Origin: Hydrolagus affinis
Taxonomy: Eukaryota
Length of the DNA stretch: 64,000 bases
Direction: 5' to 3'
NCBI GenBank assembly: GCA_012026655.1
Contig: JAAILG010000360.1
Span: 1-64,000, forward strand
Part shown: positions 15,993-44,949 of the stretch, piece after piece
How the letters are laid out: every line of letters begins with the position of its first letter
Numbering within the stretch: the first letter of the stretch is position 1
Made by a program: the position numbers and the translations under genes
Notes under the pieces: generated by a model
What the model was told of the DNA's origin: nothing
Database searches by the model: none
Seen by the model: only the letters and a program-made list of their open reading frames with translations

Positions 15993-18779
15993 TTGGTGTG
16001 GTTGATGAGTTTATAAAGTACTTATTTGAGAAGTTATTGTCTCAGAAATTATGCCACATATCCTTGATAGTTTGAGCATAGTAAGGTGAAGTTTATCCAT
16101 GCTATTCAAGCCATTTATTGCCCAATAAATGCCCTGCAGAAACCTGATGAAAATCTTTGATTTGGCACCAGTAAAAGAGAATGGTAAGGATATGTCTAGT
16201 ATCACTGCCTGTTTCCTGTCTGCAATGGAAGAAAATTCAGTGGCTTCTTGTACAGCATCAAGGTTAATGAAAGGTTCGCTCTATTTGAATTTTCTGTGCA
16301 ATCTATGGCTTCTTCATGGGATCCTAAATTGAGTATTAAACAAGCTACTGTTACATCTGGGCACATGGCCACATTGTACTAGTATATATTTATCCTGGAA
16401 GGCAGATTTTCTGATGGCAAACATAACTGGAAGGAGGGTGAGTAAACTAAAAGCATTACTCATTGATGTTTCTTCCAAACTGTTTGAAAGAGGGCAGAAT
16501 GAATACATATTTCATAGTTAACTGACAGTACAATCTTTGCAATCATAAATTCAATCTCATATCTAGAGAGAAGAGTATGTTCATGATTATTTATAGGTTC
16601 AAAAATCATCTATCATTGCCCGTGATTATATATTCCTGGATTACTTTCACTGGTTTTCTGAAGAACAGGCATTTTAGGTGATTACACATTTGAATTGAAG
16701 TCTTTGTTAGCCAAAATTAATATACTTTCACCAAGAAGTATACCTTTCAAATGATGCATGTCTGCCATCGGTATATTGAAAGGGGAAACGGAGGACAATC
16801 TTACCTTTTAAAAGTTGACTTTCATTTGATAAACATCGAGATGCTAATACCATAGAAACTGAACAAAAATGAGAAAAAGATTTCAGGTTAAATGTGTTAA
16901 GCAAGAAAAGGAATAGGATAATATTTTAAATTTATCACAGACCACAGCTAGGCCAAATTAAGGATAACTTGTCACTTGATGGCAATAATAGTGAGTGAGA
17001 GGAAGGTGGTATTTGAAACAGCCCAAGATAAACTAGGAATGCCCTTGTGGGAAGGACTCTGAACTCGTCGGTGTCTTGCATGGCTGCTCCTTGACTCGCA
17101 TTCGCCAAACAGTCTCAAAGAGCATCTCTTGTTGCACGGATCTTGTGACTGACCCAAATACTTATTATTCAGGAAGTAGAAGCTGAGCCATTAGATATTT
17201 GCAACCATAATGGGATGACAAAGGAAAATTTGCAGAGAGGGGAGAGGATGACTGTTGGGCTAAGTTGAAAACTGAACAGAACTTAGATAAGGAAGGTGTA
17301 GCTACCACATAAGAAGTGAGAAAGAACATGGCAGTGGGAACGTAATGAGGGAGGAAGCTAATACCCAAATGATCAAAAGAGAGTTAAAAATAAGAATGAA
17401 TGAGGGATAGTAAACATATTGAATGACTACTTCTTGGAGCTCGTATTTTGACTGGGGAAGGTCAACTGTTCTGTCCAACATCTAACGTACATCTTTTTGC
17501 ACAGATATAACATAGTGTTCACCCTTCAGTATCTAGGTGCTTTGTAGGTGGTAACTATATGGAGGAAGGTACACCACAACTGAGAGACTTCAATTTTGTT
17601 TTTAATGCTGTTGTATCCTAAACTGTTTTAATTCCAGCTACGTTAAGAAATAAGTAAATCCATTTTGGGTAGAAAAACAGAATTATGCATAATTGTGTTG
17701 GAGATAAGAATAAATACTACAAATCTGTTATGTGACTTTCCACACAGATTTTGTACAAATCTTTGGTTGTTTCATATGTATTGGTGTGTCACTAATACTT
17801 TTGTTCTGTCTTACAGATGTCTGAAGACAAAGAAAAGGGTTTTAGGTCTAAGTGAACCACCAGATTCAAATGTGCCATTTTTAATAGTAGCCTTTACAGG
17901 TGTAAAATGTCAGAGCATCAACAGTAAATGTTCTGAGCAGCAATTAAATATTTGGGGGCAAAAGTAAATAATCATCCAAGATGTTTTAATCATTTTTGAT
18001 GAAGTTGTAAGGGCCTCCAGGGACAATGTTCACTACATTTCTTTGGAATTCAAAATTGGTTATAGAGTTTGATTACTAAATGGACACACTAAGAGCATAA
18101 ACCTGCTGAAGATCTTTTTCCAATTATAGCAGGTGCCTATTCTGTATAAATGCTATCTAATTTGGACCAATCAAGCTGATTTTCTTCAATACATTTCTTT
18201 TTTTTTCAAACATATCCACTACCCTGATTGAAACGATCTGACGTAAACTAAGAAGTTATGTAAAAGTTTCCATTGACACACCTGACAAAGACACTGAGTT
18301 GTGCCACTGAGTAGATCACAACTTTCAACCAGAACAAATCAAAAGTACTTATTGACAGATAGAACATATAATTTGCTTTGACACATCACCAGTCATCTCA
18401 TCAACCTTTCTCGGGAAAACACAATTTCATCTACCATTGTTTTATTTTGTGTTGAATTCTGCATGTATTTGCTTAAAATACCATCTAAATTTTTGTTAGG
18501 CACACCAACTGTAGCATCACAAACCAAGCACACTGGTTTTGAAGCTTTCTCTTAGGTAAACAAGAACTGTTCTTCCCAAAATGGATCAAACTTTCTCCAC
18601 GCAATGTCCTCTTCACATTTTCTTTTTGACGTTGGTTTAATAAGCGACATGTTTGAGGGTAAAAATTAAACACTTGCAAGATCAAAGAATTAAGCTTTAT
18701 TCACACAATTGACTCAAAGGCTTCAGCTCACAGATTGGCATTGACCTTGTTAGTGTTTGGAGTGCCATAACACTGCCAT

Positions 18780-21699: not shown

Positions 21700-21815
21700 T
21701 TAATACAATAATGGACATAAATTGAAGTCTAAATACTGTATGTGAAAGGTCACTTCAGGTAGTGTCTTTTTCATTGAACCCATTTTATCGGAGAAAGCGG
21801 TTGATGTCTCTACTC
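21700..21815 (+). pseudogene. Possible remnant of opsin (OPN6-like) exon 1
   Basis: Frames give LQVVSF and, after a shift, EPILSEKA, reminiscent of the OPN6 N-terminus (LQVV..DPPLS.QG, from recall). Heavily decayed. Confidence 0.25.
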
Positions 21816-22229
21816 GAGTGACATTTCCACAGACACAGTTTGTAGTGTATGAATTTTACAAATGGATTTCAGTTTCTCAATAACCAGCTTTCCAAAAAAT
21901 TTGGACCAAATACAGGGTTGAGTTTAATTGCGAAGAAACCAAACATAATATTTCAGAAGCAGATTCCAGAAACAATGTTTTTGTAGGAAAATAAGTTGCA
22001 GGATTTGTATGTATAGCTGGGATGTGTTGAGTCTACTGTGGCCAGTTAGGAGGGATACGTTCATTTCTTATGTGTAGTTCTTGGCCCTGTTGTGTGGTCA
22101 ACACTGAATTAATAATGGAAAGGAAATGGAAATGCTCACTAATGAAAATATATATTTCAGAGCATTGACTACCATGGGTGCACTTAACTAAATTATAGAA
22201 TTGTTTAATTCAGAACAACAGTAACAACA

Positions 22230-22420
22230 ACCAAATTACATTTGTATAGCGCCTTTCACATTGGGAGGACCTCCCAAGGCAATGTACAGACAGTATTTCG
22301 GACCCGAGCTTGGAGTAGGAATTCGAGAGGGTGGAGGGCAGAGGGGGAAAGAGGTTGTTCGAAAGTACTGTCGAAGAGGGGGGCCTTGAGGTGGGTCAAA
22401 AAGTGTTGGTCTAAATTGAG
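22230..22420 (-). mobile_element. L2-type LINE 3' tail fragment
   Basis: (CAA)n tail and TAGCGCCTTTCAC..GGGAGGAC..CCCAAGGC, same tail as other L2 copies. Confidence 0.65.
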
Positions 22421-22439
22421 GACCTGAAACCATGTGATG

Positions 22440-22731
22440 ATGATAATAATAATAATCCTTGCATTTGATGTCGCACTTTACACCTTTTCTAGACATCTCA
22501 AAGCACTTCACAGAATATACTGTGATGTGAATTCACTGTATATTTGTGAGCAGAAAGCGGCAGCCAATTGTGCACAGCAGTGTCCACAAACAGTCATGAA
22601 AACTGTCCAATTTATTATTTTTTCTTTTTGAAGGGATTATTATCAGGTGTGTGGAGCAAGGAAACTTGCCCAACATTTTGCCCTGCCTGGAATTGAACCG
22701 AGGACCCCAACCACTGAGCTACAGGACTCCA
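22440..22731 (-). mobile_element. DeuSINE-like tRNA SINE
   Basis: Full head-core-tail on the minus strand. Confidence 0.8.
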
Positions 22732-23675
22732 CAATTAATATCAAAACCTTGTAGTCAGGCAGCAAAACAGTAACTTGGGATGAACAGAATAAGATTCTCT
22801 TCAAACTGTGAAGGATTTGGTTTGAATGCTGCTGTTTGTAGCCTGGGCCCTTGTCTCTTATCTCAATTTTGTCATTTTGCCATCATCATTACATCAGTTT
22901 AAAAAATGAGAAATGATTGTATTCAGAAAATATTTCGCCCACAACGTACACATCAATCCACTTTGAAGCGCCTTGAGGCATCTCAATGATGTGATGAAGC
23001 GCTATATCAAACGCAAGGATTTTCCCCTTGCCATCTTTCCCCCCTTTTCCCCTTAATCCCACTTCTATGATTCTTTGTGGGACACTGCTGTGTGCAATTT
23101 GGCTGCTGCGTTTCACCCACAAATATACAGTAAATTTTCCTACTCTTCTTCATCCTGTCCCAACCCCTCCCCCCTGCTCTTGTCCCTACCTAACCGTACA
23201 GCACCTTGGGACATCCTCTCGACGTGAAAGGCACTACATAAATGTAAGTTTTCATTGATTCATTGATTATGATTGTTATCCAAAACATACTTTTAACAGT
23301 ATGAAATTCAGTAATGTGCTTTCTGTTTCTTTTTTCACAAAGTGTTAAGTTACGTTAATTTTTTTTAAAAACATTAAAAACTTGGAAAACCATCTAAAGT
23401 ATTTAATCACATCCAAGAACAATATATATCTGGCACATTAGATAGTACTGAGCAGTGAAACTAATTGATACTGTCAGTCCAATTGTCACAATGAAATGCT
23501 TGTGTTCTTAACTGCAGCTGTAAAATAAAAAAAAGACATTATGAGGAAAACATTTGCAACTGACACCTGCAGTGTATTTTGAGATCAAACTACTTTTTTC
23601 TTGGAAAAATAATATATTAGGCAATAAATGTAAAAAAAAATTATCCGGTCTGGTAATTTTCTGGTTTCGTTTCAG

Positions 23676-23815
23676 GATGTCTGTCTTAGATTGTGATTGT
23701 GATAGAAGCTTCAGGAGGCAAAATTAACTGGATTTATTTCAATATCTGTAGCACCAAATGCTATATTGTATCTATTTTATTCAGCCTGGCTTTAATCAAA
23801 ATAATCTACAAACAA
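23676..23815 (+). pseudogene. Possible remnant of opsin TM1-TM2 exon
   Basis: Strong acceptor (ttttctggtttcgtttcag), then phase-1 (G)CLS*IV, each change one base from the GWLSWFG that opens this exon in OPN6 (from recall). The rest is poorly alignable by eye. Confidence 0.3.
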
Positions 23816-23894
23816 ATCTCAACCACTCAGCTCTACGAGACAAATTCTGAATAACTGGAGGGACCCCGACAGCAAATCATAATGTCCTAATTAT

Positions 23895-24015
23895 ACAACC
23901 TGTGAGGTTATGGGGAGAGAGCGGGGCAGTGGGATTGAGTTGCTCTTTCAAAGAGCCGGCACAAACTAGATGAGCCGAATGGCCTCCTTTTGTGCCGTAA
24001 AATTCTATGATTCTA
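23895..24015 (+). mobile_element. CR1 LINE 3' end
   Basis: GGTTATGGGGAGAGAGCGGGGCAGTGG..GATGAGCCGAATGGCCTCCT..TTCTATGATTCT, the CR1 3' terminus with its repeat. Confidence 0.8.
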
Positions 24016-24630
24016 AGACTGTTGAGCTCCCTACTGTTGTCACATTGATTGTTCCTGTGGATTAACAGTTCAAAATCCGTCAGGATTGGCCTCGAAAGAT
24101 TACAACACTCTCAAGGAGGTGGCTGTGCAAAAGGAAAGTATAAAGGAGATCCAACAGCAATAGGCAAGAGGATTTTTGGACTAGAGCTTGAGAGTCTTCA
24201 GGGTTTGCAGTTTATATAGTAACACAGCAGACCTATGCCATTACTCAGTAAGCAGCATTTATGCACATTAGCTGTAGAATAGAGATGCTGCAAGAGCTGA
24301 GCCTTTTATATCCCTATATTGACATGAAAGCGAAAAGAAGTAGAAGTTCTCAATCCTTTGTGATGCAAATCTGTTCACACATCAGTGAGAGTTGATGGAA
24401 ATTACATAATTTTTTTCAATATATTGCCCATTGGAAAGGATTAATGTGACTACATAGGAATATTAAAAGGTTTCTGTTTCCATATACTGTATCATGGAAA
24501 AGAACCTGAATGAAGCATTGTTTGAAGTTTGGCATTTCTCTCACTGGTATCCTGGAATTGGTAGCAAAATTCTTTGGATAAAAGTATTTGGATTGTATCC
24601 TATGGACTGACCAGATTCTGTGTCTTTCAG

Positions 24631-24940
24631 ATGGATGGGTTTCCTGGCTCTGCTCTTCTGCCTGATCAGCATCAACACTTTGACAGCCATCAGTATCAAC
24701 AGATTTTTTGCACTCAGCGAGTTGTTCGGATCTGGACTGCGTTGCCTGAAAGGGTGGTGGGAGCCAATTCAATAAAAAGTATTAAGAGAGAAGATAGTTA
24801 TTTGGGGAAGACAGGTTTGTAGGGCTATGGAAGAGTGAGGGAGAGTGGGATTAATTTAGATAGCTCATTTTCACAGACATGATGGGCCGAATGGCCTCCT
24901 TTTGTGTTGTATGATTCTCTTGGCTTTGAGCCACACCAAA
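24631..24940 (+). pseudogene. OPN6-like opsin pseudo-exon (TM3), frameshifted and split by CR1
   Basis: tctttcag| then, removing one T from TTTC, MDGFLALLFCLISINTLTAISINRFF (24631-24709). After the CR1 it resumes GFEPHQ-A|gtaagc (24922-24940). Compare OPN6 VDGFFTLVFGLSSINTLTVISITRFIKGCHPHKA (from recall). Confidence 0.85.
24704..24918 (+). mobile_element. 5'-truncated CR1 3' end inserted in the opsin TM3 exon
   Basis: TQRVVRIWTALPERVVGANSI (CR1 ORF2 C-terminus), then GATGGGCCGAATGGCCTCCT..TATGATTCT. Confidence 0.85.
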
Positions 24941-25484
24941 GTAAGCCAGCTGTGCCCTTACTTAATAGCTTATTAATTAATACTGTAATGTCAACACCAG
25001 CGTCTGGGTCAAAATACTGCACAATAACATTCAGTGACTTTTATTAAAAATAATGAGTCAGAGCTAGTTCCAAGGTGATGTTTGAAGTAACTGGAAGAAC
25101 ATTCCAGATTAAAGAGATTTAAAACCGTAAATACATTTTGGGGAAAACTTGTTTTTTAAGAAAATCTAATTTAGAGCATATATTCTGAAACATCCAACAA
25201 AATATTTAAGTGCCCTAGATTCCAAACAGTGATTTTACCAAGAAATTTACATTATTAGAAGCTTAGTAAATGGAATTAAAATATTACAATTAAAGTCTAG
25301 GGGACAAAATAATAAATAGAAACCACCCAAAACAGTTTGCTGCTTGGTGAATATAAGTGGAGATATGACTGAACTCAGCCCTTGAAAATGCCAAACATCA
25401 ATTGCCCTATAACAGATATTGGTTTACAATCCAAGTCTATTATAAACCTAACTGATGAGATGATACATTCTTGCCTTTCTGCAG

Positions 25485-25673
25485 CCGATCCTGTCTGTTG
25501 TTTGGTTGATAACACTTTCCTGGTCTACAGCACCTCTTGTAGGATAATAACAGTAATAAACCTTGCATCTGATATAGCATCTTATCACGTACATTCAGAC
25601 ATCTCAAAACACTTCACAGAATAAAGTGGATTCAACGTGTATTTTGTGGGCAAAGGATGAAGCAGTTACACAG
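25485..25673 (+). pseudogene. OPN6-like opsin pseudo-exon (TM4-ECL2 start), split by a SINE
   Basis: ctttctgcag| PILSVVWLITLSWSTAPLVG [SINE] G*SSYT-G|gtgcag, equivalent to the opsin IW..FWS.AP.LGWGSY motif with W changed to stop; phase-1 donor. Confidence 0.8.
25546..25653 (-). mobile_element. DeuSINE 3' fragment inserted in the opsin TM4 exon
   Basis: SINE tail (CCTTGCATCTGATATAGC..) flanked by direct repeat AGGAT at 25541-25545 and 25654-25658. Confidence 0.75.
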
Positions 25674-25734
25674 GTGCAGGTGATTTCCTGTAGTTCTCTA
25701 TTATATTCCTATAACCTTATATTGGAGAGATTAC

Positions 25735-26075
25735 AGCACTCGCCTCACAGGCCAGAGACCTGGGATCAATTTCCGGCAGGGTGAAATGTTGGAAAAGTTT
25801 CTATATCCCACACCCCCTCTGTTTACCTAGCAGTAAGTAGTTATTAGTCGATTGACAGATCACTTTTCCGGAGGTAATAAATAATTCCTTCAAAAACCAT
25901 AGTAATAATTTGGTCTCTCAATCTACGACTGTTTGCAGGATGCTACTGTGCACAATTGGCTGCCACATTTTGCACACAAAATATAGAGCCAATACACTTT
26001 ACAGTATATTTTGTGAAGCACTTTGAGACATCTCAAAGATGTGATGAGGCGCTATATCAAATGCAAAGAGTATTA
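25735..26075 (+). mobile_element. DeuSINE-like tRNA SINE
   Basis: Partial head, Deu core and tail. Confidence 0.8.
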
Positions 26076-27039
26076 TATATTACAGGGTAAGCTAACATAC
26101 AACATAGTGTTATGACATCAGGAAAGAATAACAGAAAAATATTGATGGGATTGTCTTTGTGATGTGACCATGTAAATCTTTACTTTTTAATTTGGCTGCA
26201 AAGCAACCTAATAAGCTAGTTTTCAATCAATAAAGATTGCTTTATTAAAAGCAATGTTAATCACACTTTCCAAAAATTATGTGGAAGTTGATAAGAGGAG
26301 AAAGATGGATAGTTGAACCTGGTTAATGTTTTTAGCAATCCCATAAACAGAGTGGAGCTGGTGGGTGTGGGGAGTGAGGAGTGTGGATTAAAGTACAGCA
26401 GATATCTTAGTATACATAAAAAGGGAACAAATTGAGAATTACAGGTACTGGTAATGAGGAAAATATTTGGAAGCAATCTACAAGTGCTTTGAGTGCAGTA
26501 TTCATTTATCCACATCCATAATGAATAGTTAACTGTGAATTTTAGAAATTAAACATTTACTCTCACAATATATACGATAATGTTTTGAAGACTTCTCTGC
26601 CAGGATAACCAAGTGGATCCAATCTATTTGGATTTTCAAAAGGCACTTTTGATCAATTTTCACACACGCGGCATAAAAAGCTTGTAGAATGAACAGGAAA
26701 TTAGATATTTAACTGACTAAGTGATGGAAAGCAAGAGTTGATGATAAATGGAAATGGCCCCATCCAGGTGGCAGTGATTAGCAAAACTTGTCCTGTGACT
26801 TCCACTGTTTCTATATATAAATAGGGTATTTATTATAAATTTGCTGATGGTCCTCAATGAAGATGCATAATAAATTATTTTCATTAAGAGTATCTTTTGA
26901 TTAATTATCAGAGTTAATTTGGCCATCATTGCATTACATACAGATATTAGCTGCAATTCATACAGTAGATACTGTGTACAGATGTTTTAATAGTTGAATA
27001 AATATCTTTATTTTCATTCTGAGATGATCTTTGCCTTGA

Positions 27040-27355
27040 AACAGCAACTTGTATTTAGCGCACTTCATGGTAATGTCTTGGAGTGCTTTCAGTGGTGGAG
27101 CCTGACGCCAAGGAGGAGAGAGGAAATGACCGAAAGCACGATCGAAAAGGAAAATCTTCAGGCGTGATCTGAAAAAGTGAAAGATGGAAGAAATGTAGAG
27201 GGATTGAAGGAGAGCGTTCTAAAATTCCAGGACATAATGGCTGAAAGCATGGCTGCCATGCAGAGGGAATGAGGGACAAGTAGGAGTCCAGATCCAGCTG
27301 AGTGAAGGTGATGGAGTGAACAGTAGGCAGGTCAGAGAGGTAGGGTGGTGCCGGG
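27040..27355 (-). mobile_element. L2 LINE 3' fragment
   Basis: Similar to the 18780-19306 3' region in reverse orientation. Confidence 0.6.
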
Positions 27356-29511
27356 GATTTTTAACCCATCAGCTAGTCAATGCTAGGTGTTCATATATGT
27401 AGTGATCCTCCCAGGTAGCTGTTCTCAGTGTGAGTCCATTCATGAGAGACATCATAGACCAGCCTCTGCTCTCCTGGCATCCACACATATATAGTTTAAA
27501 GCAGAAGTTACTTGATCGATATAGGAACATTTGCTTTGTTTCTTTTACATAGCCCAGAATGTTGATCTCAAATCTCAACCCCACCACTGTCAGGTACTGA
27601 AGTTACTGAGAAGCACAGCCCAAGAATTCAACCTGGGATTCTCCTGTCCATATGGCTTAACACTGCAACACATGTTGAAGTTATTTATTTTTACAATGCA
27701 CCAGTCACCATATGATTCGAAGATAATGTCATTCACATCTTCACCTTTGATATATTTGAAAAATGTTATAATCCTAATGTAATTTAATTGTAGAAACCTT
27801 GTAAAGTAATGGATTTAAACAACTGCAATAAAACTACATTCCTAACCATGTCGGTTTGAATTTAATGGATCATTAAGCGGAATCCAAGTTTCAAGTACAA
27901 TAAAATCCAGAAAGCAAGGAAATAACAGAATCAGAATCTCATCCATTTTTTAAGAAGTTTGATTTGATACTAATTTAACTGTAAGTAGGAAGACGAATAA
28001 AGTGAAAAAATGGGCTGCTCTCATCTGTATACATGTACTTTCTTAATGCTGTGATAGTTAGGATGAGCTGCGAAAGATTGCTTTGGCTTCAGCGACAATT
28101 GAACTGGCCCAAAGCTGAATTCTAAACGAAATTTGGCCTTTCACAATTGATTCAGGTGGCTGAAGCCAAGCTTTCATTAATTAGAAACCAAAGGACTTTG
28201 CTTTGACTGGATAAATTGCATTCAGGATATTAAACATTCAAGCCTAATAGTGGCAGAGTATTCTTTGAGAAATGAGTTAACCAAAACAAATGTCTCGTGT
28301 ACGTTTCATCCCTGAATGAAAGGAAGTGACCTCCTAGTGAGTAAGGACTACTTATAACTTATTGTTCCCTTGTCTCAGCCAGCCACCTCATCTTTGTAAT
28401 CTAACCAAGACCTTTCGCCTCCTGTCTGACGGAGGGATGACTGTAAAGACGACGCAAAGCCATTATTGCAGACCAGTTCTCCCAATTCATAGTGCATAAC
28501 ACGCTTATTTTCACCTGTGAGATCATCCCAGGAGAAACTCACAAGTCCTAGTTGATTGTTGTAAATGTACTGATCAAGGTATCAGTCAAATTCTAAGATT
28601 AATTTAGTGCTACATCTTAACACTGCAATTCATCTCAAAACTATTTATATTGGGTAACATATTGCAGAAATCTCTTTACCCTGTGTAAAACAGTCTGTTT
28701 TGCTATATCAAATGCAAGGATTTCTTTCATCCGTAAGATCCTAATTTTAAACTATCCATCAATGTTTCAAATATTTCATCCTGTTGAACAATTTCTCTGG
28801 ATCGCCTTCTTAATTCCTTTAATTATCTTAAATACTTGTATCAGGTCAGTTATTTTCTGAAGAGGACGAGCCATCATAACCTAACTTCTGCCATTATTGT
28901 GGTTACTCACTTCTAATCTATTGCAAGGGTAATTATATCCTGCCACAGTTTAAAACTGCACACAGTATTTCAAATGAGGTCTGGCCCCCAAAAGAGCTTC
29001 TTTTGATTTGTACTCCATCCCTCTGCTAATCCACCATTGATCCTTATTTGATATTTATTTACTTCTAGAAAATGATTTCATGTGTTTATTGATACAAACC
29101 TTTAGGATGGCGAGGCTATTGATACGCTGTACAACTGGTTGAGTTACTGCCGGCTCATTCTTTTAATTCTTTATACCCACACCATTAGTTCACCTATTCA
29201 AATCTGCTTGAATCAAGTTGCCACATTTTTTCATCTGTCTCTTGTTTTTACATCAATTGCACACATGGATTGCTCATGAACCTTTTTAAATCTTAAGAGT
29301 TTTATTATAAATTCTTTATAATAAGTTTTATTATAAGTTTCACGAATAGCTGAGATACCTCACTTGGTCCTCTGTGCAGCTTGAAAATTTCTCATTCCGA
29401 AATTCCTTCTTTTCTAAGCGAATTTTGAATTGAATGATACATCTGTTCTCTATCACTTTAACTTATATACAGATGGTCTGGAACATTATCAAAACCTTAC
29501 TGAAAGGCTTA

Positions 29512-29811
29512 TGGAGTCCTGTAGCTCAGTGGTTAGAGCATTCACCTCACAAGCGAGAGACCTGAGTTTTGATTCCCAGTAGGAGAAAGCCTTGGGCAAG
29601 TTTCCTTTCACCACACATCTGATAATAATCTCTCAAAATATTAACAATAATAAATTAGTCACTTCATTCCACAACTGTTTATAAGACACTGCTGTGCGCA
29701 ATTGACTGCTGAATCCACCCACAAATATACAGCCAATTCACTTTATATAATTTTCTATGAAAAATAGAAGACATGAAAAACGCTATATCAAACGCAAGGA
29801 TTATTTTATTA
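29512..29811 (+). mobile_element. DeuSINE-like tRNA SINE
   Basis: GGAGTCCTGTAGCTCAGTGGTTAGAGC head, core and tail. Confidence 0.85.
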
Positions 29812-29849
29812 TACATGAAAATTCAATAGATATATATTTTTTCCCTCCA

Positions 29850-30290
29850 CAAGCTGCAGATCATCGAGAACTCTGCAGCTCATGTGTTCTCTCACACCAG
29901 GTACTGTGACCACATCACACCCACCCTCACCCTGGCTCACCATTCCTGAGAGCATCAAGTTCAAAATTCCCGTTCTCACCTTCAAGGATCTCTACGGTCT
30001 TGCCCCCACTATCAGAGGTCGGGCTTTCAGTCTCTTTGCTCGCATCCTCTGGTGCTCCATCTCACATTCCTTTTCCACATTCCCTCTCTTGCCTCCTCCA
30101 AAGCACACCTCAAGACCCTCCACCTTGACCACACCTTCAACCACCCACCTCACACCCACTCCACCCTCCCTGATGCCAACCCATCCCCCACCATCCAGCT
30201 CGGGTCCTAATTCCTGAGTGTTCAGAGCCTCGGGAGGTCCTCCCAACTTTATAAATGTAATTTATAAAAGGCACTTTATAAATGTAATTA
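29850..30290 (+). mobile_element. L2 LINE 3' fragment
   Basis: ORF-track peptide WLTIPESIKFKIPVLTFKDLYGLAP matches the L2 ORF2 end. Confidence 0.75.
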
Positions 30291-30561
30291 TGTATTCTAT
30301 TGTATAAATAATCAGTTGTGTTGCACTGTCCATCATTGTCAATAATATCATTTTAAATTCCAGCAAACTGATTAAACTTGACTTCTAGTTTCTGAATCAA
30401 TGATGACTATCCTTGATTTTTCAAGTGGTTTCCCACTAGGTCTCTATTTCAGTGATTTTACCTAAACCAATGTTTAACTTACTGACCTGTAGTTTCCAGG
30501 TATATTTTTGATCCTAGCTATGCTCCACTTTTCAGCAATCCATCTCAAGCTTAGTGAAGAT

Positions 30562-30745
30562 CAGTGGCAGAGCCAGGTTTTGCAAGGGGTGGGGGTTGGA
30601 GGGAGGATTATGGGGCCACCTTACAGCTCTCCACCATGCCTCCTTTCACAATACGCTTGAAAAGTTACCAAACACACACATCTAAAGACCACCGGGAGTG
30701 CAGTCACATGCCCACCCCACCACGCCCCTATTATCTCCGCTATTG
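30562..30745. mobile_element. hAT-type MITE with perfect 8-bp TSD
   Basis: GTGAAGAT at 30554-30561 and 30746-30753; imperfect TIRs CAGTGGCAGAG / CTCCGCTATTG. Confidence 0.8.
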
Positions 30746-31397
30746 GTGAAGATACAAAAATATCAGCTAAAATATTAATTCCAATATCCATTTCCCAGAA
30801 CCTCAAAAGTTTTTGGACCAAAGAACTTTGTTTCAAAAATGACTTGTTTTTGTGCAATATAAGTATATCTGGCATTATGGGGACAGGAACCTTTCTTTCC
30901 TGGAAATCTGATTCCTGACTTTGGGTAACTGTGCCTTCCAGTTCTTAATAAAGATAGATGAAAGGTAACTGTGTTTTACATTATTTCAATAAATTGCTGT
31001 ATTCTCCGTATCACTTTTCAGGGAATGCACCCTTTGTTTACAGAGGATACATTTGAAAAACCCTTAAAAAAAAACTCTTGGCCTGGTCAAGACTCCAAGG
31101 CATTCTAACACACACTCTCTCTTGGCTTCAGCAATTATCTTAATTTTCTAAAACTTTCTTCTGCTTGTCTTTATAATTTGCCAATCCTCTCTACCAGATC
31201 CTTCATAGTGTTCTGAAAGCCTCTTTATCCAAATACTATTTTTTATCCCTACTTAACCGCATTTGCCTCATTAATCCGTTTTGCTTTGGTTGCAATGAGC
31301 ATTATATAAACAGGTGTTATATCCCAAAATTCAAAGTTTAAAAACTGATCCTTAATTTTGGCCACGTTGGTAACTGTTCCTGTGTCTTATTTTTCAG

Positions 31398-31850
31398 ATA
31401 ATTTATGCTGCCTTCATTCTGGATTCCCCCCACGACTACCACCATCCCTTGCCCCATGCAATCATCTCTACTTGGTCTGCTTGTGGTTTCAATGTCCAGA
31501 CCATCACCCGTAGCCTGGTCTGCCTCATCACCATGTCTGCCAGCATTTATAACCCCATCATCAACTTTGGCACAAACCCCAAATTCTACAAGAATGTTCC
31601 AGCTCTCTTCTACTGCTTGAAAGAAGAGAACAATGCAAGCTTTGTTAAGCCAATAAACCACATCAATGAAAGGATAAAGGTAGATTCGCTGAACCAGGCT
31701 GACAAGCTCCAGGTTCCTAAAGTCCCTATAGCCCCTACCATGGCTGAGAACCCAGACTTGCCTGAGATGCCAATTTCAAATACCAATATCCCAAGCATTG
31801 GTCTGACCTTTGGTCAATGTAATCAACACTTAAAACAAGATGGAGGGTGA
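31398..31850 (+). pseudogene. OPN6-like opsin terminal exon (TM6-TM7-C tail), open frame, Lys296 replaced by Met
   Basis: ttttcag| IIYAAFIL-DSPHDYHHPL-PHAIISTWSACGFNVQTITRSLVCLITMSASIYNPIINFGTNPKFYKNVPALFYC..., 150 codons to TGA. Aligns to OPN6 AFILAWSPYAVVSMWSAWGFHVPNLTSIFTRLFAKSASFYNPLIYFGLSSKFRKDV (from recall). Confidence 0.88.
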
Positions 31851-32572
31851 TTCCAATCTTTGATCCAGAAAGCGTTATTTACAACTTAAGTTTGACTTTA
31901 AAATCTGTGTTAATTACAATATTTATTTAGTTTAATGCCTTTTTTTTGGTGGAATTTTAGTCAAAATAATTATATGTTTAAATGTGACCTGATTAAGTAA
32001 GTGTGTGTGATTTTTAAAAAAAATAATGTATTGGAAGTTTCTCTGTGAAATAAAATGGCTGACTAGGCACCTGCTACAGTAACCCATGCCTGGCAGACAT
32101 TATTGCTGTGTTAGGTACCACTTCTATGAAAATAAGTGTTGATGCTTTATTGCGATTATATCACCTGCGAGTTAATTGTCTCACTATAGGTAGAAATCAC
32201 AAGGTGTTGATGCCACAGCATTTTAAACGCAAGTAAGGCATATGTAGTACTGTACTTGTGTTACTGAAAAGAAGATAACAGAAAATAGAGAAGCAATTTA
32301 CTAAGATATGAGATAGCTATAAAGGTCACTTTTGCATTTTTACCATGACATTTGTACTCCTTCAACAAGTCACCCGATGGGAATCAAGGCGTACTGAAGG
32401 GAACATAAAAGATTTGTGTTCACTTTGGGTTGCAAAGCAGAACGGAAACACATCAGTTTGAAATAAGTGAGTTTACAGTACTTGAACAACCCAGAGGAAT
32501 GTGACTTCCCACCTACCTTTCCCTGTGGGGTTGAAGAACACGACCAATAAGTGAACCTGCTCGTCATTTACG

Positions 32573-35405: not shown

Positions 35406-35968
35406 GTAAGTCGCTACTCGACTTCCAAACTCACAACCATCAGAAAGTTTATTTTCTGTGTGATTTGTTTTCTGTTGCTTGTCTAGTGAAGAATAGGAAA
35501 TAACATTTAATATTAAAAAAAAAGGAAGGTATCCTCTGTATTCAACAATAATGATTCCCTTGATATTCAGTAATACGTGTTTCATAATACATATTTAGAT
35601 CTGTAGACTTAATGTCCACCCCTATTGTAAACATGGTGCCATGTATACTTTCCTCCTATCGAGTCAGACAGTACAGTATAAATATATTGTGTAACACAGT
35701 GTGTGCAGCACTGGGCGATTTAAATAATCAACAACACGATTATGTGGAGACAGGTTAACTACACGATAAGGAGCTGTATCAGATGCAAAGATCATTATTA
35801 TCAGTATTATTATTATTAATGCTGTGTGCAGCTGCTGTAACGTTGCGCTGGGATGTTTGGGGATATCAATTTCCATTGTTTTCTTAATTAAAAATTTATT
35901 TAACGGTTTGGCCTTTTACATTGCGTTACCAGTGATTGCTGCATCAACATTTTTTTGTTCCTTAAAAG

Positions 35969-36125
35969 TGCCAGTTTCCATTGAATGTACCACCAGAGGT
36001 GCCCGCGTTAAGGAGAAGGTGGCTGTCGTGCTGTGCCCCCCCGGCTGTGCCTACCCTCAACTCGCAGTCTGGGGGTCAGGGGTTTATGCCTCGGTGTCCA
36101 GCGTCTGTGCGGCCGCCGTGCACAG
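35969..36125 (+). CDS. COCH: COCH LCCL domain exon (VPVSIECTTRG..CPPGC..VYASVSSVCAAAVH)
   Basis: LCCL signature Y..SS.C.AAVH; 157 nt, phase 1 to 2. Confidence 0.97.
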
Positions 36126-38428
36126 GTGAGGACTTCAGTGACAGCTGAAGAGGATCTCTTAAAATAACACTGGTATTGCCTCAAAAAAAAAACACCTCCG
36201 CGAGTTATATCTCAAATAAGAAATGGTTTGCTATTTTTGCAAGACGGTATCTTTCGAGGAATGTTTAACGGTTTGCAAGGAAATCCTCTAGTTGTTTGGT
36301 CGCCTTTTTTTTGAATTAGGAATACGGTGTCTTCAAATACAAATCGTGGGAATTGCTTGGAAAATACAGTATCTTTCAGATTCCTTTTCACAATTGTCCC
36401 CCCCCCCCCCACCACCTTTAAAAAGAAATGAGTTCGACGGATGGATTAAATGTTCTTCAGTGTACAGAAAGGAAATTTAATTTCACTGAGTCATTCTGCC
36501 AAAAACCTTTCCATGGTACAATTTTGCAGCCCCTTATTCTATCAGAAAAAATACATGACCTCACATTTTGGTTACATTTAACAGCATCTGCCATATTTCT
36601 GCCCATTCGCCTGATCACCACCACCATGTAACACAACTCCTGGCGAGTAGTTTACAGGCCACTGCATCACTGCTGCTAATGTCATTAATTCACCAGACTG
36701 CAATAAGGCATGATTTAAAATAGGTCAACCTCCGTAACATAAGATTTCTCCCTTTTTACAATCGTTCTCTTCAACCTTGAAAGGAAAAATAAAATCCATC
36801 CACCAGACCAACTGCAAACCGATGATACGAATCAAGCTGAAAAATTATTGAGTTTCAATGGCACGCAGCCCTGGAACTCAATCCTTTTTCTCTTAAAAGA
36901 TTGGAATCAAATGATCAACAGCTTGAATTGTTCCCCCCATTAATATCATGTCCTCACGGCAAGCAACGGCATAGCCAAGTGAGTCCAACTGTCTACGTGT
37001 CCAACTTTACACAGCAATCCAAGAAGGTACTGACTGGGGTATGAACCACAGGCAAGTCACCCAGGGAACATTAAAAGAACATTAAAGAAATGACAGCAGC
37101 AATAACCTGCCGACCTGAAGTTTTTTGTCCTATAAACATGGCTGCTGAGACACTGAACCTTTGGTGATATTTCCCTGTGTTTCTTTTATGCCCAAGGTTC
37201 ATTTTCAGTTGGCTTTTTATCCTTTTGGTTGCAGCAGGTCTCAAGAAACTGCAGTCTCCCCAAGCGTGCTATTTTCAAGAGCCTTCATTTCACACACTGC
37301 AATAAAAGTTGCATTGGAACTTGTGTGTTTCCTTTATGGGGCTCGGTTATATACTTTGGCATCTTAGCGATGCAAAAATCTACTGCCAGCATGTAAAGCA
37401 AGCCTGCCAACCGCAGGTGAGCTGAACCTCTGTACTGTGTATCCCACTAGCTCAGTTATTCTGTTTCAGTAATACACGCGGTTAAAAATGACAACAACAA
37501 ATTACATTTGCACAGCGCCTTGCACATTAGAATGATGTTCCAAGGCGGTGGGAACAAGGGTGGAGGGGGAGGTGGGGGGGGGTGGGCTGTAAAGAGAAAA
37601 GTGAGACTTGGTAATAGTGCACTGATTTTTAACACATTGCAGATTATTCTTTGCTGCCAACCAATGTAGGCTTCCATCCAGCTGTTAACTTCGCTGAAAA
37701 ATAAATAAGAGCATAAGTAGGTTTTGTCATTGGAATGAACAGTCCTATATACATCGACATGGCTCTAGGATTAGTGGGACTGAAAGGGAACTGTGTAAAT
37801 GATTAATTTAGGTGTTGCACAGAACTTTCTTTAACATTGCTGGTGACACAAATTTACTTTTTCCTCTGTATTGACCGCCCGGTTACTGGTAATTCTGCAG
37901 ATGTCCGTAGAAGTGCCTACAAAATACTAAGATTTTAAAAACAAAAAAATGAGGGGTGACATTCATAAAACTCAAGATTGTTCAATTGTTCTTTATTTCA
38001 AATATTGGATAAATTCATAAATGTGGATTTCCCATACATCAGGCATCAACCAGTAAATTACGGATTGATTAATAAATGGACAAGTTAAGATAACAAATAT
38101 AAATATGTGTACAATAGTGTCCATTTAAACATTGTCTGTAGGGTATTAAACAGTGTACCAGTCCAGATATCATACAGAGCAAAAAAAAATGCACTGTTTG
38201 ATTTCATGATCAAATGCTTCTAAAGATTTGATTTTGCTTGTCCCTGTGTTGTACTTTCAAAGATGTATTGCAGTTCCCTGACAGGCCACTGGAGAGAGAG
38301 CAAGATAGGACCACAAAGTGTTTCGTAAGAGGATCACAAATGTTGGGATTCAGTACTTGACAGACAGTGCCGGACAGACAGTGCTGGGCTGTGAAGTTGA
38401 TGTAAAATAAATCTGATCAGATCCCAGT

Positions 38429-38608
38429 ATAATAATAATCCTTGCATTTGATATAGCGCCTCTCACGTCTTCTAGACGTCTCAAAGCATTGCACAGAATA
38501 TGCTGTAAAGTGGATTGATTGTATGTTTGTGGGCGAAACGGGGCAGCCAATTGCACACAGCAGTGTCCCACAAACAGTCGTGGATTGAAGTGACCAATTT
38601 TTTTTTCC
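38429..38608 (-). mobile_element. DeuSINE 3' half
   Basis: Core and tail on the minus strand. Confidence 0.8.
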
Positions 38609-38619
38609 AATATTGCTGT

Positions 38620-38843
38620 GTAAAATAACCTGACTACATTTCAGTTGTCGATTGGCTGGTCACTTTCCCGAGGTAATAATCCCTCCAAAAGTAAACTTTA
38701 GAAAATGGTCATCCAATCCAGAATTTGTGGGTCACTGCTGTGTGCAATTATGCGTGCAATCAATCCACTTTACAGTATATCCTATGAAGCACATTATCTC
38801 CACGACGTGATAATATCATATCAAATACAAGCATTATTATTAT
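38620..38843 (+). mobile_element. DeuSINE 3' half, inverted relative to its neighbour
   Basis: Core and tail on the plus strand. Confidence 0.75.
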
Positions 38844-40739
38844 AATTATCTTTAAAGATCAGTTTGATTAGGTGGGTTTACGGCAAACCAAACTTTACTA
38901 TTTATGCAAACTATCTGTTATACAATACTGATTATAAGGGTGAACTGGATCCCAAATTTCTTTTCAATAGCCCAATTTTTACAAAAGTTTTGAGTGAAAT
39001 TGATTCAATTGAAACAATTATCCAATTGGCATGGACTAGTCCAATTTGTTCACATATACGCTCTATGTAAATCTATGACTTCAATTGTCCGCATTTTAGA
39101 CTATCGCTAACGTCAGTCACATAGAGTAGAGTATATATTTTTTTGGCAGCGCTGGCCTTTCAGAAACCTTGCATGAATTGGAATAGGATCTGTTACATAA
39201 TCATGAAATATGTTATAGGTGACATGGAAAGAGCGTCAATAATTTTGAGCTCGGGCGATTAAAAAAAACAGAGGAGTGTTCACTTCTATCCAAACGTTTT
39301 TATATATGATTTCATATAAAAATGATACAATTTTATACCCAATGGATATATTCTTCTATTTTCCGTTGTGTGTGTTTGCCAGGAGCAAGATGTTCAGTAT
39401 CGTATGTGTGAGACATTTTATTTTTTCACATGTGATGGATGCTTGCTTGGATGTTCCTCTGAAATCCTCTTTCCCCCCTGCTGCTCCTGGCATTTATTGT
39501 ATAACATTACACATGGAAAATAATATTGTCTTTGGTTACCGTAGAAACGTAAATAAAAAGCTGTTCAAAGGTGTTATTGTAAAATGTTAAAAATAAAAAA
39601 ATGTTACAGGATTTTTCCTTTTTGGCTAACTCCGAATCTGAATTGAAATCGACTGCAATGAAATGCATGTTGTGTTGCCATGAGAAATAATATGCTTTTC
39701 AAACAATGTGCAGAAATGACATAATCGACTTTGCCATGTTTTGAAAATAATATCTTGTTTTTTCTTGCGGATAAAAAAAAGGTCTGACTGAGGATTGAAT
39801 TAACAGGCATATCTGAATTAACAACGTTAGTACTTCAGTTTTCCTTGGCTTCAGTGACATTTCCAAGCTGGTTAGCCAATGCTTCAAATAAAAATACAGC
39901 AAAACAGGAGAAGCACTCAATTAGACTATTCAACAGGGGATGTACAGGTCACATTGACTCAGACATAGCGTGACTTTGCTCTGCAGAATGTTAGTCTTAC
40001 ACAATTGAAGATGAATATTTGAGTCTGATATGTGGATTGAAGTGCCGTTGTCATCCTCTAGATGTCTCCCCAATGCAATGGGCCAAGCATCTAACTTCTG
40101 TACCATATTATGGTCTGAGTATTGGATTTAGCCTTCAGTAAATTCCATGTGTCTGTTCACTGCAATAGATCAAATTGAATTTGTTTGTTTTTTTGTAAAC
40201 TATAGAACAACTGGGCAATATTTTAAAAATCTAATATCTTAATTGTAAATTCCCTTCTTATCATCTCTGAAAACCGATTCTTTTTTTTTCTAAATAGACC
40301 AAAGTACAGAACATTTAATTGAAAATTAAATGTTAAACATATCAGCGTAAATCTTGTGAAGTTGGACTCGGGAAGTTCAGTTCAAATTGAAAAGCAGTTT
40401 GTCCTTAGAAATGATACCATCGCCTGCAGACTGACCCTCGATTTGAAAGTTTGTCTGTGAGAGTCCAGCATTTTAACAAAGCAAAGAGTCTGTTTATGGC
40501 AATTATATCAAGAGTCAGAGTAAACTGAAGTGTGACTAATAATAATGGTGGTATCATTTAGTTATGGTCTATTTGATGCGTGTTTTAATTAAACAGTAAG
40601 CAAGTGCGTCGTGTTTTGTACCATCTAAATACTATTTCTCTCAATTTAGGCACGGGAATTAGAACCTGTGGTTCAGACGTTGATGTATCTATTGAGGTTT
40701 TCTCCCAGTAAAACAACTTCTTTTTATGGCCCCTTTCAG

Positions 40740-40873
40740 TGGCGTGATTGCCAAGTCGGGCGGAGCGGTTCGTGTTCAGAAATTAGAAGGAAAATCAAAC
40801 TATAGTTCTTCACTCGCCAATGGAGTGCAATCTCTTTCACTCACTCAATGGATCGGCTCATTTTCGGTCTCCG
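40740..40873 (+). CDS. COCH: COCH LCCL exon (GVIAKSGGAVRVQKLEGKSNYSSSLANGVQSLSLTQWIGSFSVS)
   Basis: 134 nt, phase 2 to 1, LCCL C-terminal NG..S...W..SF motif. Confidence 0.97.
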
Positions 40874-41290
40874 GTAGGTGGTGATGTTTTCTTCCCCAGA
40901 CCTTCAGATCATTCAATGGACAAGTGATATGCACACACACCTTCACACTCCAGCTGTGCTTTAACTAGATATCTACAGTATATATTTTAAAAGGAACTAT
41001 GCGTTATCATCAGTGAAAAGACATCACTTAGTAATCCACACACACTCATACAGATGGCTGGCTACTATCAATCATACCATTCACCAAGTAGTTAGACTGT
41101 AAATCACAGAAATGTATTTTAGAATTTAAACTTGTATTTTATAAAGACATATCGAGGGAAGCAAATGTCGTCCCAAGTAGACTTAATGAGATGGACTCAC
41201 GAGGTAAAGGTATTTCAGTCAGATGAAAACTGCCACTTGACGTATTTCTTTTAGTTGGACACTGAACTGTGACTTTAATTGGTTCTGCAG

Positions 41291-41353
41291 AGGCCCAGAC
41301 GACAGCCCTTGAAGTATCTGGCCCCCCAAGAGCAACAACAGTTCCAGCTTCAG
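41291..41353 (+). CDS. COCH: COCH linker exon (EAQTTALEVSGPPRATTVPAS)
   Basis: 63 nt, phase 1 to 1, AG/GT, S/T/P-rich. Confidence 0.85.
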
Positions 41354-41867
41354 GTCAGTGATGTTTCACTTCAAATTCCATGATCTCTCATCTCTCAGCC
41401 ATCCCTAAATAGTAATTTAGGAACATTGCCGTTTGATCAAACAATTCATCTGGAATTGAATGTATCCACGTTGAATATTTATCTTAAATAATATTTTTTC
41501 TTCAGCCCTAGTACAATGTCAATAAAGTCTAGCAGAAGTTAGGTTCACAGGGATTTTTATCCAGTTTTAACGGGCTGTCAGGAAACATTGCCCTTTGCTC
41601 CTGGATTTGGTACATCCACAGCTGTGCAGACGAGTGGATTGAATGAGGATTATCTGCTCCTTGCCAGAGTTCACCAACTACAGATCTGTCAGTGCGAAAT
41701 CCATGAGCAAAGCTGCGCCACATCAGTTCTGGTGCCTCTACCGGACCTTCACATGGAGGCCAGGAAAGGAAATAGCTGTCATAGTTTGTTAATTCTGTTT
41801 CTGTACATCCTCTCAAACTATAGTAATGCATCGCAAGTAACCAGTGTCCTTTGTTGGAATATTTTAG

Positions 41868-41921
41868 CAAAAAAGTCAAAGAAAAGATTTGGGAAAACCC
41901 ACTCAGCACGTGGAAACAAGG
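41868..41921 (+). CDS. COCH: COCH basic linker exon (AKKSKKRFGKTHSARGNK)
   Basis: 54 nt, phase 1 to 1; ends GNK as in cochlin. Confidence 0.88.
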
Positions 41922-42008
41922 GTAAGGATTCCGACTTTCTTTTTAAGGCTGTATGTTTCAAAACTTGACGATCTAACAGATTGGAGAATAATCCATTTTC
42001 TACCACAG

Positions 42009-42156
42009 AATGCAAAGCTGATATTGTCTTCTTGCTCGATGGAAGCTGGAACCTTGGTAAACGCAGGTTCAACTTGCAGAAGAACTTTGTCATTCGGATT
42101 GCTCAGTTGCTTGGCATTGGACCAGAGGGACCCCTTGTGGGAATGGTACAAATCAG
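42009..42156 (+). CDS. COCH: COCH vWA1 exon ([28 protein letters not shown]..)
   Basis: 148 nt, vWA FLLDGS motif and cochlin [10 protein letters not shown]. Confidence 0.97.
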
Positions 42157-42586
42157 GTAAACAGAAGTAGAGTAAGACAACGTGGAATCTCTTATTCTGT
42201 CGCTGACTACCTCTTCTTGTGATATTATAGGTGCTTGCCTTCGATCCAGCAGATGCAGTAATTTCACCCTAAAAAGAGAAAAAATTGTAACTTTAGCCAC
42301 TGATTCTGATCTTGCCATACGAGGTGGAGAAAATATATAATACTGTATGCTAAAGGCCGACATACATTGTGTATCTATCCCAGATACAGTGTGGAACTAA
42401 CCGCTTCGACCAATTGATCAGAACTATTTATTCGGACTAAAATTAAGTCTGTTTCTTCTCCTGTTTCTTCACCAACGTTGATGGTGAACGTACAAAGCAG
42501 AGCCTATTTTTTTTTTAAAAAGTGTTACAACTAATCACAAGAGTGTTGTTCCCATACCTGCCTTTGTGTTCTTTATGTTCATGTAG

Positions 42587-42690
42587 TGATAACCCTAGAA
42601 GTGAGTTTAGTCTCAAGAACTTCACAACCTCAAAATATGTCATTGGTGCCATCAAAAATGTAACCTTCAAAGGAGGGAATGCAAATGTCG
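42587..42690 (+). CDS. COCH: COCH vWA1 exon (SDNPRSEFSLKNFTTSKYVIGAIKNVTFKGGNANV)
   Basis: 104 nt, phase 2 to 1. Confidence 0.96.
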
Positions 42691-43797
42691 GTGAGTCCCG
42701 CTTTAAGATAAGTCTTTATATATCCTCACCTTTTTATACCTGTGTGTTTCAAGGGATCTTTGATTGCTCCTAGTGTGGAGTGGCTAACCCACTCTGCCAT
42801 TAACTGCTTCAACCCCACTCCATGCAAGTCCATGTGGATGCTTGGCATTGGACCAACACTATCTGTACCCATTGCCAACATAACCGTTGGAGACAGTGAC
42901 CCAGTCACCCATGCAGTACATAAAAGTGATCCCTTCTACCACAGGTACATGAATGTAATGTTTGAGTAGCAGGGTGGAATGCGTGGCTGAAACAACATTT
43001 TCTTTCCCTCCTCACAATGCACAGGTACTCGATATAACTTCGGCAAAACAAGAGCCATATTGTTTGCGGATGATGTTTCAATTAGATTTAGTTGCTTAAT
43101 GCATGTTCCTTGTACTGTACCTCATTCCACCATGCTTTATTTATTTTCTCCCATTGGATTCGACCACAGCATCCACTGCTCTCTAATAGAGGAGCTTCCC
43201 TGCCCTATGGTAACGACAGCCTAACCAGCTCTTGGGAAGTGTACATGTTGTGTACACTATGATTCCCCCCCTGGGGACATCCTCTCTGTTTGGTACTTGT
43301 TGCGTCTAGTCCAGCTGTAGCAAAGAACTTACTGTTTGAGGAGATATGCTGTTGCTACACTGCACAATACTTTAGGTAAATGATTTGATTTATATTAGAG
43401 CTTCTATAGATTGTAGGAAGGTAAGATCCCCAGTCTTAATGTCCTGGGAAACATTGAGTAAGAATAGCTGACCACATGGATGATTTTTTGATTTAAGAAC
43501 AGTTTAAAGGGAAAAAATTAATTAACAGTTAGATTGTTTTTATTTTAGGGGATGATGTTCAGCAAGACGGAAGTGTGATTTAATAGGTCTTGTCTTCTGT
43601 GAGTGGTACCTGTTTCTTGGTCCCCAAGTACAGGAGGCATTGGCATAAATCTGGAACAGATGGAAACATGGTTGGTGGGGGGACTGGGTGGGGGAGTTGT
43701 GTGTGTGGAGGAGGGAATTGATTGAAAGTGTTCCTTGTGTGAGAGTTTCCGGAACTATTCTCAGAAATCCATTGAAAGTGTTGACTTCATGCACCAG

Positions 43798-44915: not shown

Positions 44916-44949
44916 GTAACATCTGTTAAAGGCAATAGAATCCTCTCCT

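Follow-up and report, generated by a model that had tools for sequence, protein, structure and literature searches.

A putative Opn6b pseudogene between SCFD1 and COCH in Hydrolagus affinis, with lesions in common with the elephant shark

The genome of Hydrolagus affinis carries, on the + strand of contig JAAILG010000360.1 between SCFD1 and COCH, a remnant of the non-visual opsin gene Opn6b that cannot encode a photopigment. An intron-containing gene has decayed here, probably through a single death in the common ancestor of H. affinis and the elephant shark (Callorhinchus milii). The analysis supports its reading as a spliced, unitary pseudogene, probably still where the gene originally lay. 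A 2026 paper already describes the chimaera Chimaera phantasma as having lost Opn6b and states that C. milii retains the gene (PMC12952989). Relative to that paper, the new element is the set of lesions in common with C. milii.

Architecture and lesions of the remnant

The window, that is, the whole stretch analysed, comprises 64,000 nucleotides (positions 1 to 64,000 of the contig) and contains the following features.

near 2225 and 9058-9126, + strand: further SCFD1 exons (exon frames)
7142-7207, + strand: late exon of SCFD1 (Sly1 orthologue), upstream flank (phmmer match to Sly1 1mqs)
17309-17515, + strand: non-coding remnant containing stops (match to the N-terminus of an older C. milii gene model)
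21700-21900, + strand: proposed exon 1, not confirmed (below the shuffle mean, three tests)
23676-23906, + strand: probable exon 2 remnant, TM1-TM2 (post-hoc end-anchored test)
24631-24940, + strand: exon 3, TM3 (both profiles, AG acceptor)
25485-25673, + strand: exon 4, TM4 (both profiles, AG acceptor)
25674-31397, + strand: interval expected to hold exon 5, ECL2-TM5; no remnant detected in profile searches
31398-31863, + strand: exon 6, TM6-TM7-tail (both profiles, AG acceptor)
32049-32054, + strand: AATAAA, candidate old polyadenylation signal (from sequence alone)
35965-46021, + strand: COCH, downstream flank, with LCCL and two vWA domains (domain matches)

An earlier note had placed the locus between SCFD1 and COCH. 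The COCH side is confirmed by a match to the cochlin LCCL domain at 35965-36129 (E 4e-14), and the SCFD1 side is indicated by the exon at 7142-7207, which phmmer matches to yeast Sly1 1mqs (E 1.2e-4); we assume the name SCFD1 from this match together with sequence motifs. A homology search with the adjacent exon at 9058-9126 gave no useful match, and when the genome was searched with Pfam Sec1 the contig was not among the matches listed.

A frameshift-tolerant Opn6b profile was run over 9500-35500, with 60 shuffles and the minus strand as controls. Exons 3, 4 and 6 scored 110, 74 and 234, against shuffle bests of 56, 54 and 56 and minus-strand scores of 42, 36 and 40; a nucleotide-level profile gave 54, 42 and 116 against maxima of 28, 28 and 34 in 100 shuffles. 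The three strong segments described previously were thus borne out in coordinates, + strand, order and preceding AG acceptor. The exons lie 0.5-5.7 kb apart with AG/GT ends; being still separated by introns, they rule out a processed pseudogene, and the earlier reading of a spliced rather than retrotransposed copy holds. When the borders of the six-exon OPN6 structure were taken from intact Opn6a, exons 3, 4, 6 and probably 2 matched, and exons 1 and 5 were not found.

Two weaker segments, at 21.7 and 23.7 kb, had been proposed as exons 1 and 2, and of these the second alone stands, through a post-hoc test. After an acceptor, 23676-23906 reads G-C-L-S-stop-I where intact genes read GWLSWI, with TAG at 23687, a scrambled middle, and a terminal T-C-E followed by GT. 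In a test anchored at both ends, devised after the ends were known, this single-copy stretch scored 26.8 against 22.5 for the best of 100 shuffles (p<=0.01); in local searches with both profiles it did not rise above chance. It is probably the remnant of exon 2. The 21.7 kb segment is unsupported as exon 1: three tests were negative, and in one of them it scored 12.9 where shuffles averaged 19.5; the reference in that test was the bony-vertebrate exon 1 only, because the canonical exon 1 is absent from all six shark and ray Opn6b models examined. A search of 25674-31397 for exon 5 found none (p 0.66 or worse), and the genome search yielded no other Opn6b-grade exon 5. Two further candidates were discarded as chance resemblances: 23720-23840 as exon 5 (score 44, below the shuffle mean of 49) and 24528-24617 as the end of exon 2.

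Exon 3 carries one extra base somewhere in 24640-24643 and an interspersed repeat at about 24703-24918, after which it resumes with G-F-E-P-H-Q and a GT donor; its translation gives a weak Pfam 7tm_1 match (E 0.002). Exon 4 has lost its initial ~9 codons, holds a repeat insertion (~25544-25654) flanked by two copies of AGGAT, and reads TGA at 25658 in place of the Trp of GWGSY. In exon 6, five bases are lost after 31418, a C-rich insertion (~31422-31454) interrupts TM6, and a frameshift lies near 31838, with the old C-terminus (M-E-G-D-S-N-L-stop) in another frame at 31840-31863. The position of Lys296 is ATG (Met) at 31533, where no difference is listed for two close relatives, organisms A and B. 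Assembly error, a possibility raised in the earlier note, is ruled out for exon 3 by contigs of public runs X12 and X13 (depth 4.7 and 2; either run may come from the same species or be the source itself), which cross the frameshift and the repeat junction without gaps, and for exon 6 by lesions common to public runs X5 and X6. The exon 4 lesions are without clear coverage among the rows listed (12 of 41 for indels, 40 of 285 for substitutions), which are swamped by repeats. Thus, the remnant lacks the lysine that a functional opsin uses for its retinal Schiff base, and the frameshifts, the two stop codons (23687 and 25658), the inserted repeats and the missing exon 5 leave it no continuous seven-helix frame.

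Assignment to the Opn6b paralog

A phmmer search against 1.84 billion proteins returned 23 matches, and for 22 of these the best BLAST match identified the protein as Opn6. Ranked first was RefSeq XP_007891629.2 from C. milii, named 'opsin 6, group member b' and only 130 aa long. In a tree of 37 rows, built without named Opn5/7/8/9 references and with the window and C. milii rows filling a third of the columns, the window paired with the C. milii model (100/99), and this pair nested within shark/ray Opn6b (100/97) and in turn within Opn6b (100/99); the intact Opn6a of H. affinis was sister to that of C. milii (100/99). Exon 6 is identical to sawfish Opn6b at 37/62 residues, to its own Opn6a at 26/62, and to four other opsin exons of the genome at 8-11/62. 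No opsin was recovered when the last exon was searched by itself against Pfam and PDB. Together, the phmmer matches, the tree and the exon 6 identities rule out a non-opsin GPCR; the OPN6-like identity proposed earlier is upheld, and the phylogeny proposed with it joins the remnant to shark and ray Opn6b.

Intact members of that clade include Pristis XP_051871295.1, Hypanus XP_059843791.1 and Hemiscyllium XP_060684940.1. The remnant shares with them C-L-I preceding the Lys296 motif, A-L-F-x-C-L-K-E-x-N following helix 8, T-C-E closing exon 2, and agreeing exon borders; in these genes, unlike the remnant, exons 2-6 are still in frame and Lys296 is retained.

Intact Opn6a lies on other contigs of the H. 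affinis genome, so the lost gene is the b paralog rather than the whole of OPN6. Among 66 matches to a sawfish Opn6b query, only Opn6a and the SCFD1-COCH locus reached Opn6 level, and no other Opn6b-grade exon appeared among the 101 of 201 candidates scored in this fragmented assembly (245,464 contigs). Within that search, the earlier description of a unitary pseudogene agrees with the lack of a functional Opn6b elsewhere. Opn6a, beside a cochlin paralog that we take to be vitrin, and Opn6b, beside COCH, may have arisen in an early vertebrate genome duplication; the paralogous arrangement alone was seen directly, in a thrush model that fuses Opn6a to the COCH paralog. Xenopus carries opn6a on chromosome 5 and opn6b on chromosome 8, with opn6b coming to be enriched in cones and opn6a in rods (PMC10547888).

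Lesions in common with Callorhinchus milii

The C. milii lesions come from a pair of automatically generated protein models (P0001 and P0185), not from DNA. XP_007891629 version.2 is the 130 aa 'opsin 6, group member b', and the earlier version.1 was a 263 aa 'uncharacterized' protein. The locus is orthologous: 97/125 residues of the last exon are identical to the window, and the older model also matches window exon 3 and the 17.3 kb remnant. The latter (17309-17515), which that model takes as its N-terminus, matches in two in-frame stretches, tying the C. milii model to the SCFD1-COCH locus; it is presumably LINE/CR1-like. In the C. milii models, exon 3 is free of the inserted repeat; a frame of 130 codons, annotated as coding, stays open as far as the ancestral stop, unlike in the window.

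Both C. milii versions read Ile at Lys296, a residue kept in 200/202 fetched proteins with the motif, the exceptions being the two C. milii models. The exon 3 frameshift is common to the window and the older model: in the frame of F-L-x-L-L, at the exon 3 acceptor, both read F-R-W-(W)-M-[G/S], whereas intact Opn6a reads F-Q-I-D-G. In both, an insertion follows W-S-P in TM6. Among 30 conserved exon 6 positions, five are changed in both species (four to the identical residue), four in the window alone and one in C. milii alone; in intact genes the mean number of changed positions is 0.6 and the maximum 4. An Opn6b profile search, covering the best 120 of 430 matches, leaves room for a divergent full-length C. 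milii Opn6b below that cut; a separate search, in which P0001 alone was found among 91 candidates of 262-2000 aa, argues against one.

The frameshift, the place of the TM6 insertion and the four replacements by the identical residue, all common to the two species, point to a likely death on the holocephalan stem, more than ~187 Mya. There, Opn6b would have gained the +1 frameshift in TM3 and the TM6 insertion and lost Lys296, with four further conserved positions replaced; once Callorhinchus had split off (~187 Mya, PMC12952989), neutral drift, repeat insertions and lineage-specific indels would have followed. Opn6b was probably knocked out just once in this way, which would mean that no living chimaera has it, that the C. 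milii copy is a fossil, that the published view of the loss as belonging to the dwindling opsin set of a deep-sea chimaerid is wrong, and that the locus is unusually old for a pseudogene yet readable exon by exon. Two separate losses, in Callorhinchus and Chimaeridae after relaxed selection, would accommodate the differing residues at Lys296 (Met vs Ile) and at the TM3 Gly (Cys vs Ser) and the differing inserted residues as translated; however, the common TM3 frameshift is by itself inactivating, and a single base change turns Met into Ile, which fits one loss followed by drift; a double loss is highly improbable.

Section 3.5 of PMC12952989 instead confines the loss to deep-sea Chimaeridae, which would make the C. 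milii gene a working one and its odd models annotation or assembly faults. RefSeq's coding designation and the open 130-codon frame accord with this, but Ile replaces Lys296 in both model versions, and the frameshift, insertion site and four replacements recur in an unrelated genome, which C. milii assembly errors would not explain; we regard this account as very unlikely. The paper states that its figure displays only putative full-length ORFs. As in the window, Opn6b of Ch. phantasma is lost between conserved flanking genes, described there as ORF absence, with no Opn6b remnant among the pseudogenes listed in the text (Opn5m, TMT1, TMT2). Syntenic spliced remnants like that in the window are known for catshark opn5m and rgr2 (PMC11979771) and pufferfish opn6b (PMC4617963); those are described as recent, whereas the age suggested here exceeds ~187 My.

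If Opn6b is dead in C. milii, holocephalan opsin counts and loss timing need correction, and the loss is not creditable to the deep-sea life of Chimaeridae. Work on the chimaera opsin set takes C. milii as its standard reference, and the species' RefSeq 'coding' model XP_007891629.2 is flagged here as a likely pseudogene. Given the cone and rod enrichment of the two paralogs in Xenopus, early loss of Opn6b with Opn6a kept would bear on early chimaera photoreceptor evolution; the result is otherwise a specialist correction about an ordinary pseudogene, involving no new mechanism.

Neutral decay and possible residual transcription

A surviving function, as a retinal-free receptor or a last-exon product still used as peptide or RNA (for example, in C. 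milii), could be read from the open last-exon frames, which span 158 codons in the window and 130 aa from an ATG in C. milii. Between these two species, however, identity is 42/55 over TM6-helix 8 and 57/70 over the tail (p 0.51), and 34/40 over the 17.3 kb remnant, our benchmark for neutral divergence. The Opn6a pair reaches 52/55 over TM6-helix 8 (p 0.013 vs the pseudogene pair), and intact ray and shark Opn6b 53/55, with 24/74 over the tail. The TM region is therefore no more conserved than the tail or the neutral remnant: the Opn6b remnant evolves neutrally, without constraint since the C. milii split.

Further evidence comes from close relatives, among which 6/10 substitutions alter the residue. 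Organisms A and B lack the window's 5-base loss and carry one further exon 6 frameshift each, at 31710 and 31603, which rules out a conserved last-exon ORF; the open frame is thus an accident of compensating indels. The C. milii start Met is also Thr in the window. The run index for the locus listed no RNA run as carrying it. Six RNA reads (three pairs) from organism B map to exon 6 and its 3' end and are oriented as sense transcripts would be, consonant with continued use, but these are three pairs in ~29 million records, with no splice joints, and continued use is very unlikely. The locus makes no functional protein and leaves at most trace RNA.

Identity of the remnant between SCFD1 and COCH

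Sequence matches confirmed SCFD1 and COCH as the flanks of the remnant, and its three strong segments translate, as the earlier note claimed, as opsin TM3, TM4 and TM6-TM7-tail. When 9500-35500 was searched exon by exon with frameshift-tolerant profiles built from 18 Opn6b proteins, exons 3, 4 and 6 scored 110, 74 and 234 (best of 60 shuffles: 56, 54 and 56), while exons 1, 2 and 5 gave no score above chance; a nucleotide-level profile agreed with this pattern. Exon 5 was likewise not found by a targeted search of 25674-31397. The segment at 21.7 kb, proposed earlier as exon 1, failed its test. The segment at 23.7 kb, proposed as exon 2, follows a splice acceptor, opens with G-C-L-S-stop-I and closes with T-C-E and a GT; these two ends match those of exon 2. 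It ranked first in a test anchored at both ends (26.8 vs 22.5 for the best of 100 shuffles), a post hoc design conceived once both ends had been seen. None of the six shark and ray Opn6b models examined (P0149, P0154, P0165, P0204, P0205 and P0206) has a canonical exon 1, and their N-termini are unrelated; in cartilaginous fishes generally, this exon may have diverged, disappeared or been annotated wrongly.

The proposed OPN6 assignment held: in a phmmer search of 1.84 billion proteins, 22 of the 23 matches were Opn6, the remaining one being an unrelated repeat protein, and exon 6 comparison favored sawfish Opn6b (37/62 residues identical vs 8-11/62 for four other opsin exons of the same genome). 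Among proteins of 262-2000 aa, the sole match to the last exon was the Callorhinchus milii model, at 77% identity, which points to a holocephalan other than C. milii as the source of the window. In a 37-row tree that took two lamprey Opn6 as its root and included no Opn5, 7, 8 or 9 references, the remnant and the C. milii model, whose rows occupy one third of the columns, were joined (100/99) and nested within shark/ray Opn6b (100/97), itself nested in Opn6b (100/99). Among 66 matches to a sawfish Opn6b query, no further exon of Opn6b grade turned up elsewhere in the genome. Receptor-like matches to the Opn6b query on contigs C28799, C10568 and C2137 (loci L025, L039 and L041) carry a TGA inside the matched stretch; they may represent exon ends or additional damaged opsins. 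The window locus is almost certainly a real unitary pseudogene of Opn6b.

Beyond COCH lies a further gene, presumably STRN3 by gene order:
47000-63200, minus strand: WD40 gene in convergent orientation to COCH, with a Pfam WD40 match in one exon
The ORF list also holds two similar repeat-like stretches inside SCFD1 introns (1350-1807 and 8142-8563, minus strand).

Lesions and possible trace transcription

Exon 3 carries one extra base at 24640-24643, a frameshift spanned without gaps by contigs of two other runs at low depth, and an inserted repeat of ~215 bases (39/40 scored matches elsewhere in the genome). Exon 4 lacks its first codons and contains a TGA at 25658 and a repeat of ~110 bases flanked by two AGGAT copies. 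Exon 6 has lost 5 bases, has a C-rich stretch inserted within TM6, reads ATG where the codon for Lys296, the retinal Schiff-base residue, is expected, and contains a late frameshift. Two close relatives compared through public sequencing runs, organisms A and B, are ~98-99% identical and show no difference from the window in TM6 insert length or Lys296 codon. Because neither shares the 5-base loss and both carry a further frameshift of their own (at 31710 and 31603, respectively), the long open last-exon frame seen in the ORF track is an accident of the window species.

RNA from organism B (~29 million records of one single-cell sample, without positive control) yielded six reads, as three pairs, in exon 6 and its 3' end, with first mates on the minus strand and no splice joints among them. 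These reads are compatible with trace transcription or background.

The C. milii copy and the time of loss

A unitary opsin pseudogene is of an ordinary kind. Published work covers OPN6 naming and pigments and an opn6b pseudogene in pufferfish (PMC4617963), opsin pseudogenes of catshark (PMC11979771) and opn6a/b of Xenopus (PMC10547888). Opn6b loss in one chimaera is also already published; the text of PMC12952989 reports Ch. phantasma without intact Opn6b between conserved flanking genes, states that C. milii retains Opn6b, and lists no Opn6b remnant. The locus is not mentioned in the portions seen of PMC3296468 and bioRxiv 2024.10.03.616438, nor are the searched terms in PMC10620051. In the literature searched, we found no statement calling C. 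milii Opn6b a pseudogene, although Yamaguchi 2021, Hara 2018, Yamashita 2020 or their supplements may contain one. The lesions common to the window and C. milii are a useful correction.

These C. milii lesions were read from protein models rather than from its DNA, the main weakness of the comparison. XP_007891629.2, named 'opsin 6, group member b' in RefSeq, has 130 aa, starts inside TM6 and carries Ile at the Lys296 position. The older version takes its N-terminus from a non-coding remnant, which the window also carries, 7 kb 5' of exon 3; thus, the model represents the same locus. Like the window, and unlike intact Opn6a, the older version reads through the exon 3 acceptor in a shifted frame, and its TM6 is interrupted at the same site by 8 inserted residues. 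Five of 30 conserved exon 6 positions are altered in both species, four to an identical residue. Identity between the two is 42/55 in the receptor core, 57/70 in the tail and 34/40 in the neutral remnant, vs 52/55 in the Opn6a core of the same species pair. Since the split, the Opn6b receptor core has thus changed at the same pace as the tail and neutral remnant, unlike that of Opn6a.

We infer a single inactivation before the Callorhinchus-Chimaera split, placed at ~187 Mya by PMC12952989. Because changes common to both species roughly equal later changes per lineage, a long dead period on the holocephalan stem is suggested, the counts being too small for a date. Opn6b has probably been dead since that stem.

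Opn6a and a probable duplicated pair

Searching with the C. milii Opn6b model revealed a second, intact opsin in the genome; spliced together, its six exons give an uninterrupted frame of 401 residues that retains Lys296. This opsin is Opn6a, split between two contigs (loci L005, L006 and L010):
C11514:7233-1441, minus strand: intact Opn6a exons
C17733:13433-12990, minus strand: intact Opn6a exons
In a thrush gene model, Opn6a is fused to an LCCL-vWA protein, and this part matches another locus of the genome (79%) better than window COCH (54%). Accordingly, Opn6a beside a COCH paralog, which we take to be vitrin, and Opn6b beside COCH appear to be a duplicated pair.

The fused models P0004 and P0023 place Opn6a next to SPAST (bichir) and the COCH paralog (thrush). 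The first exon of C. milii Opn6a model P0002 (UniRef A0A4W3GMW8) is an intronic stretch by comparison with L010 6797-6715; the canonical exon 1 is present in RefSeq C. milii model P0207 and in this genome. Catshark XP_038656518.1 (P0075) was placed with Opn6a in the tree, while PMC11979771 lists a single intact catshark neuropsin, named opn5L1b; the mismatch may be a naming difference. This Opn6a and that of C. milii share a TM3 His (S-I-N-T-H-T) where other aligned OPN6 have Leu, possibly a holocephalan tuning or folding change.
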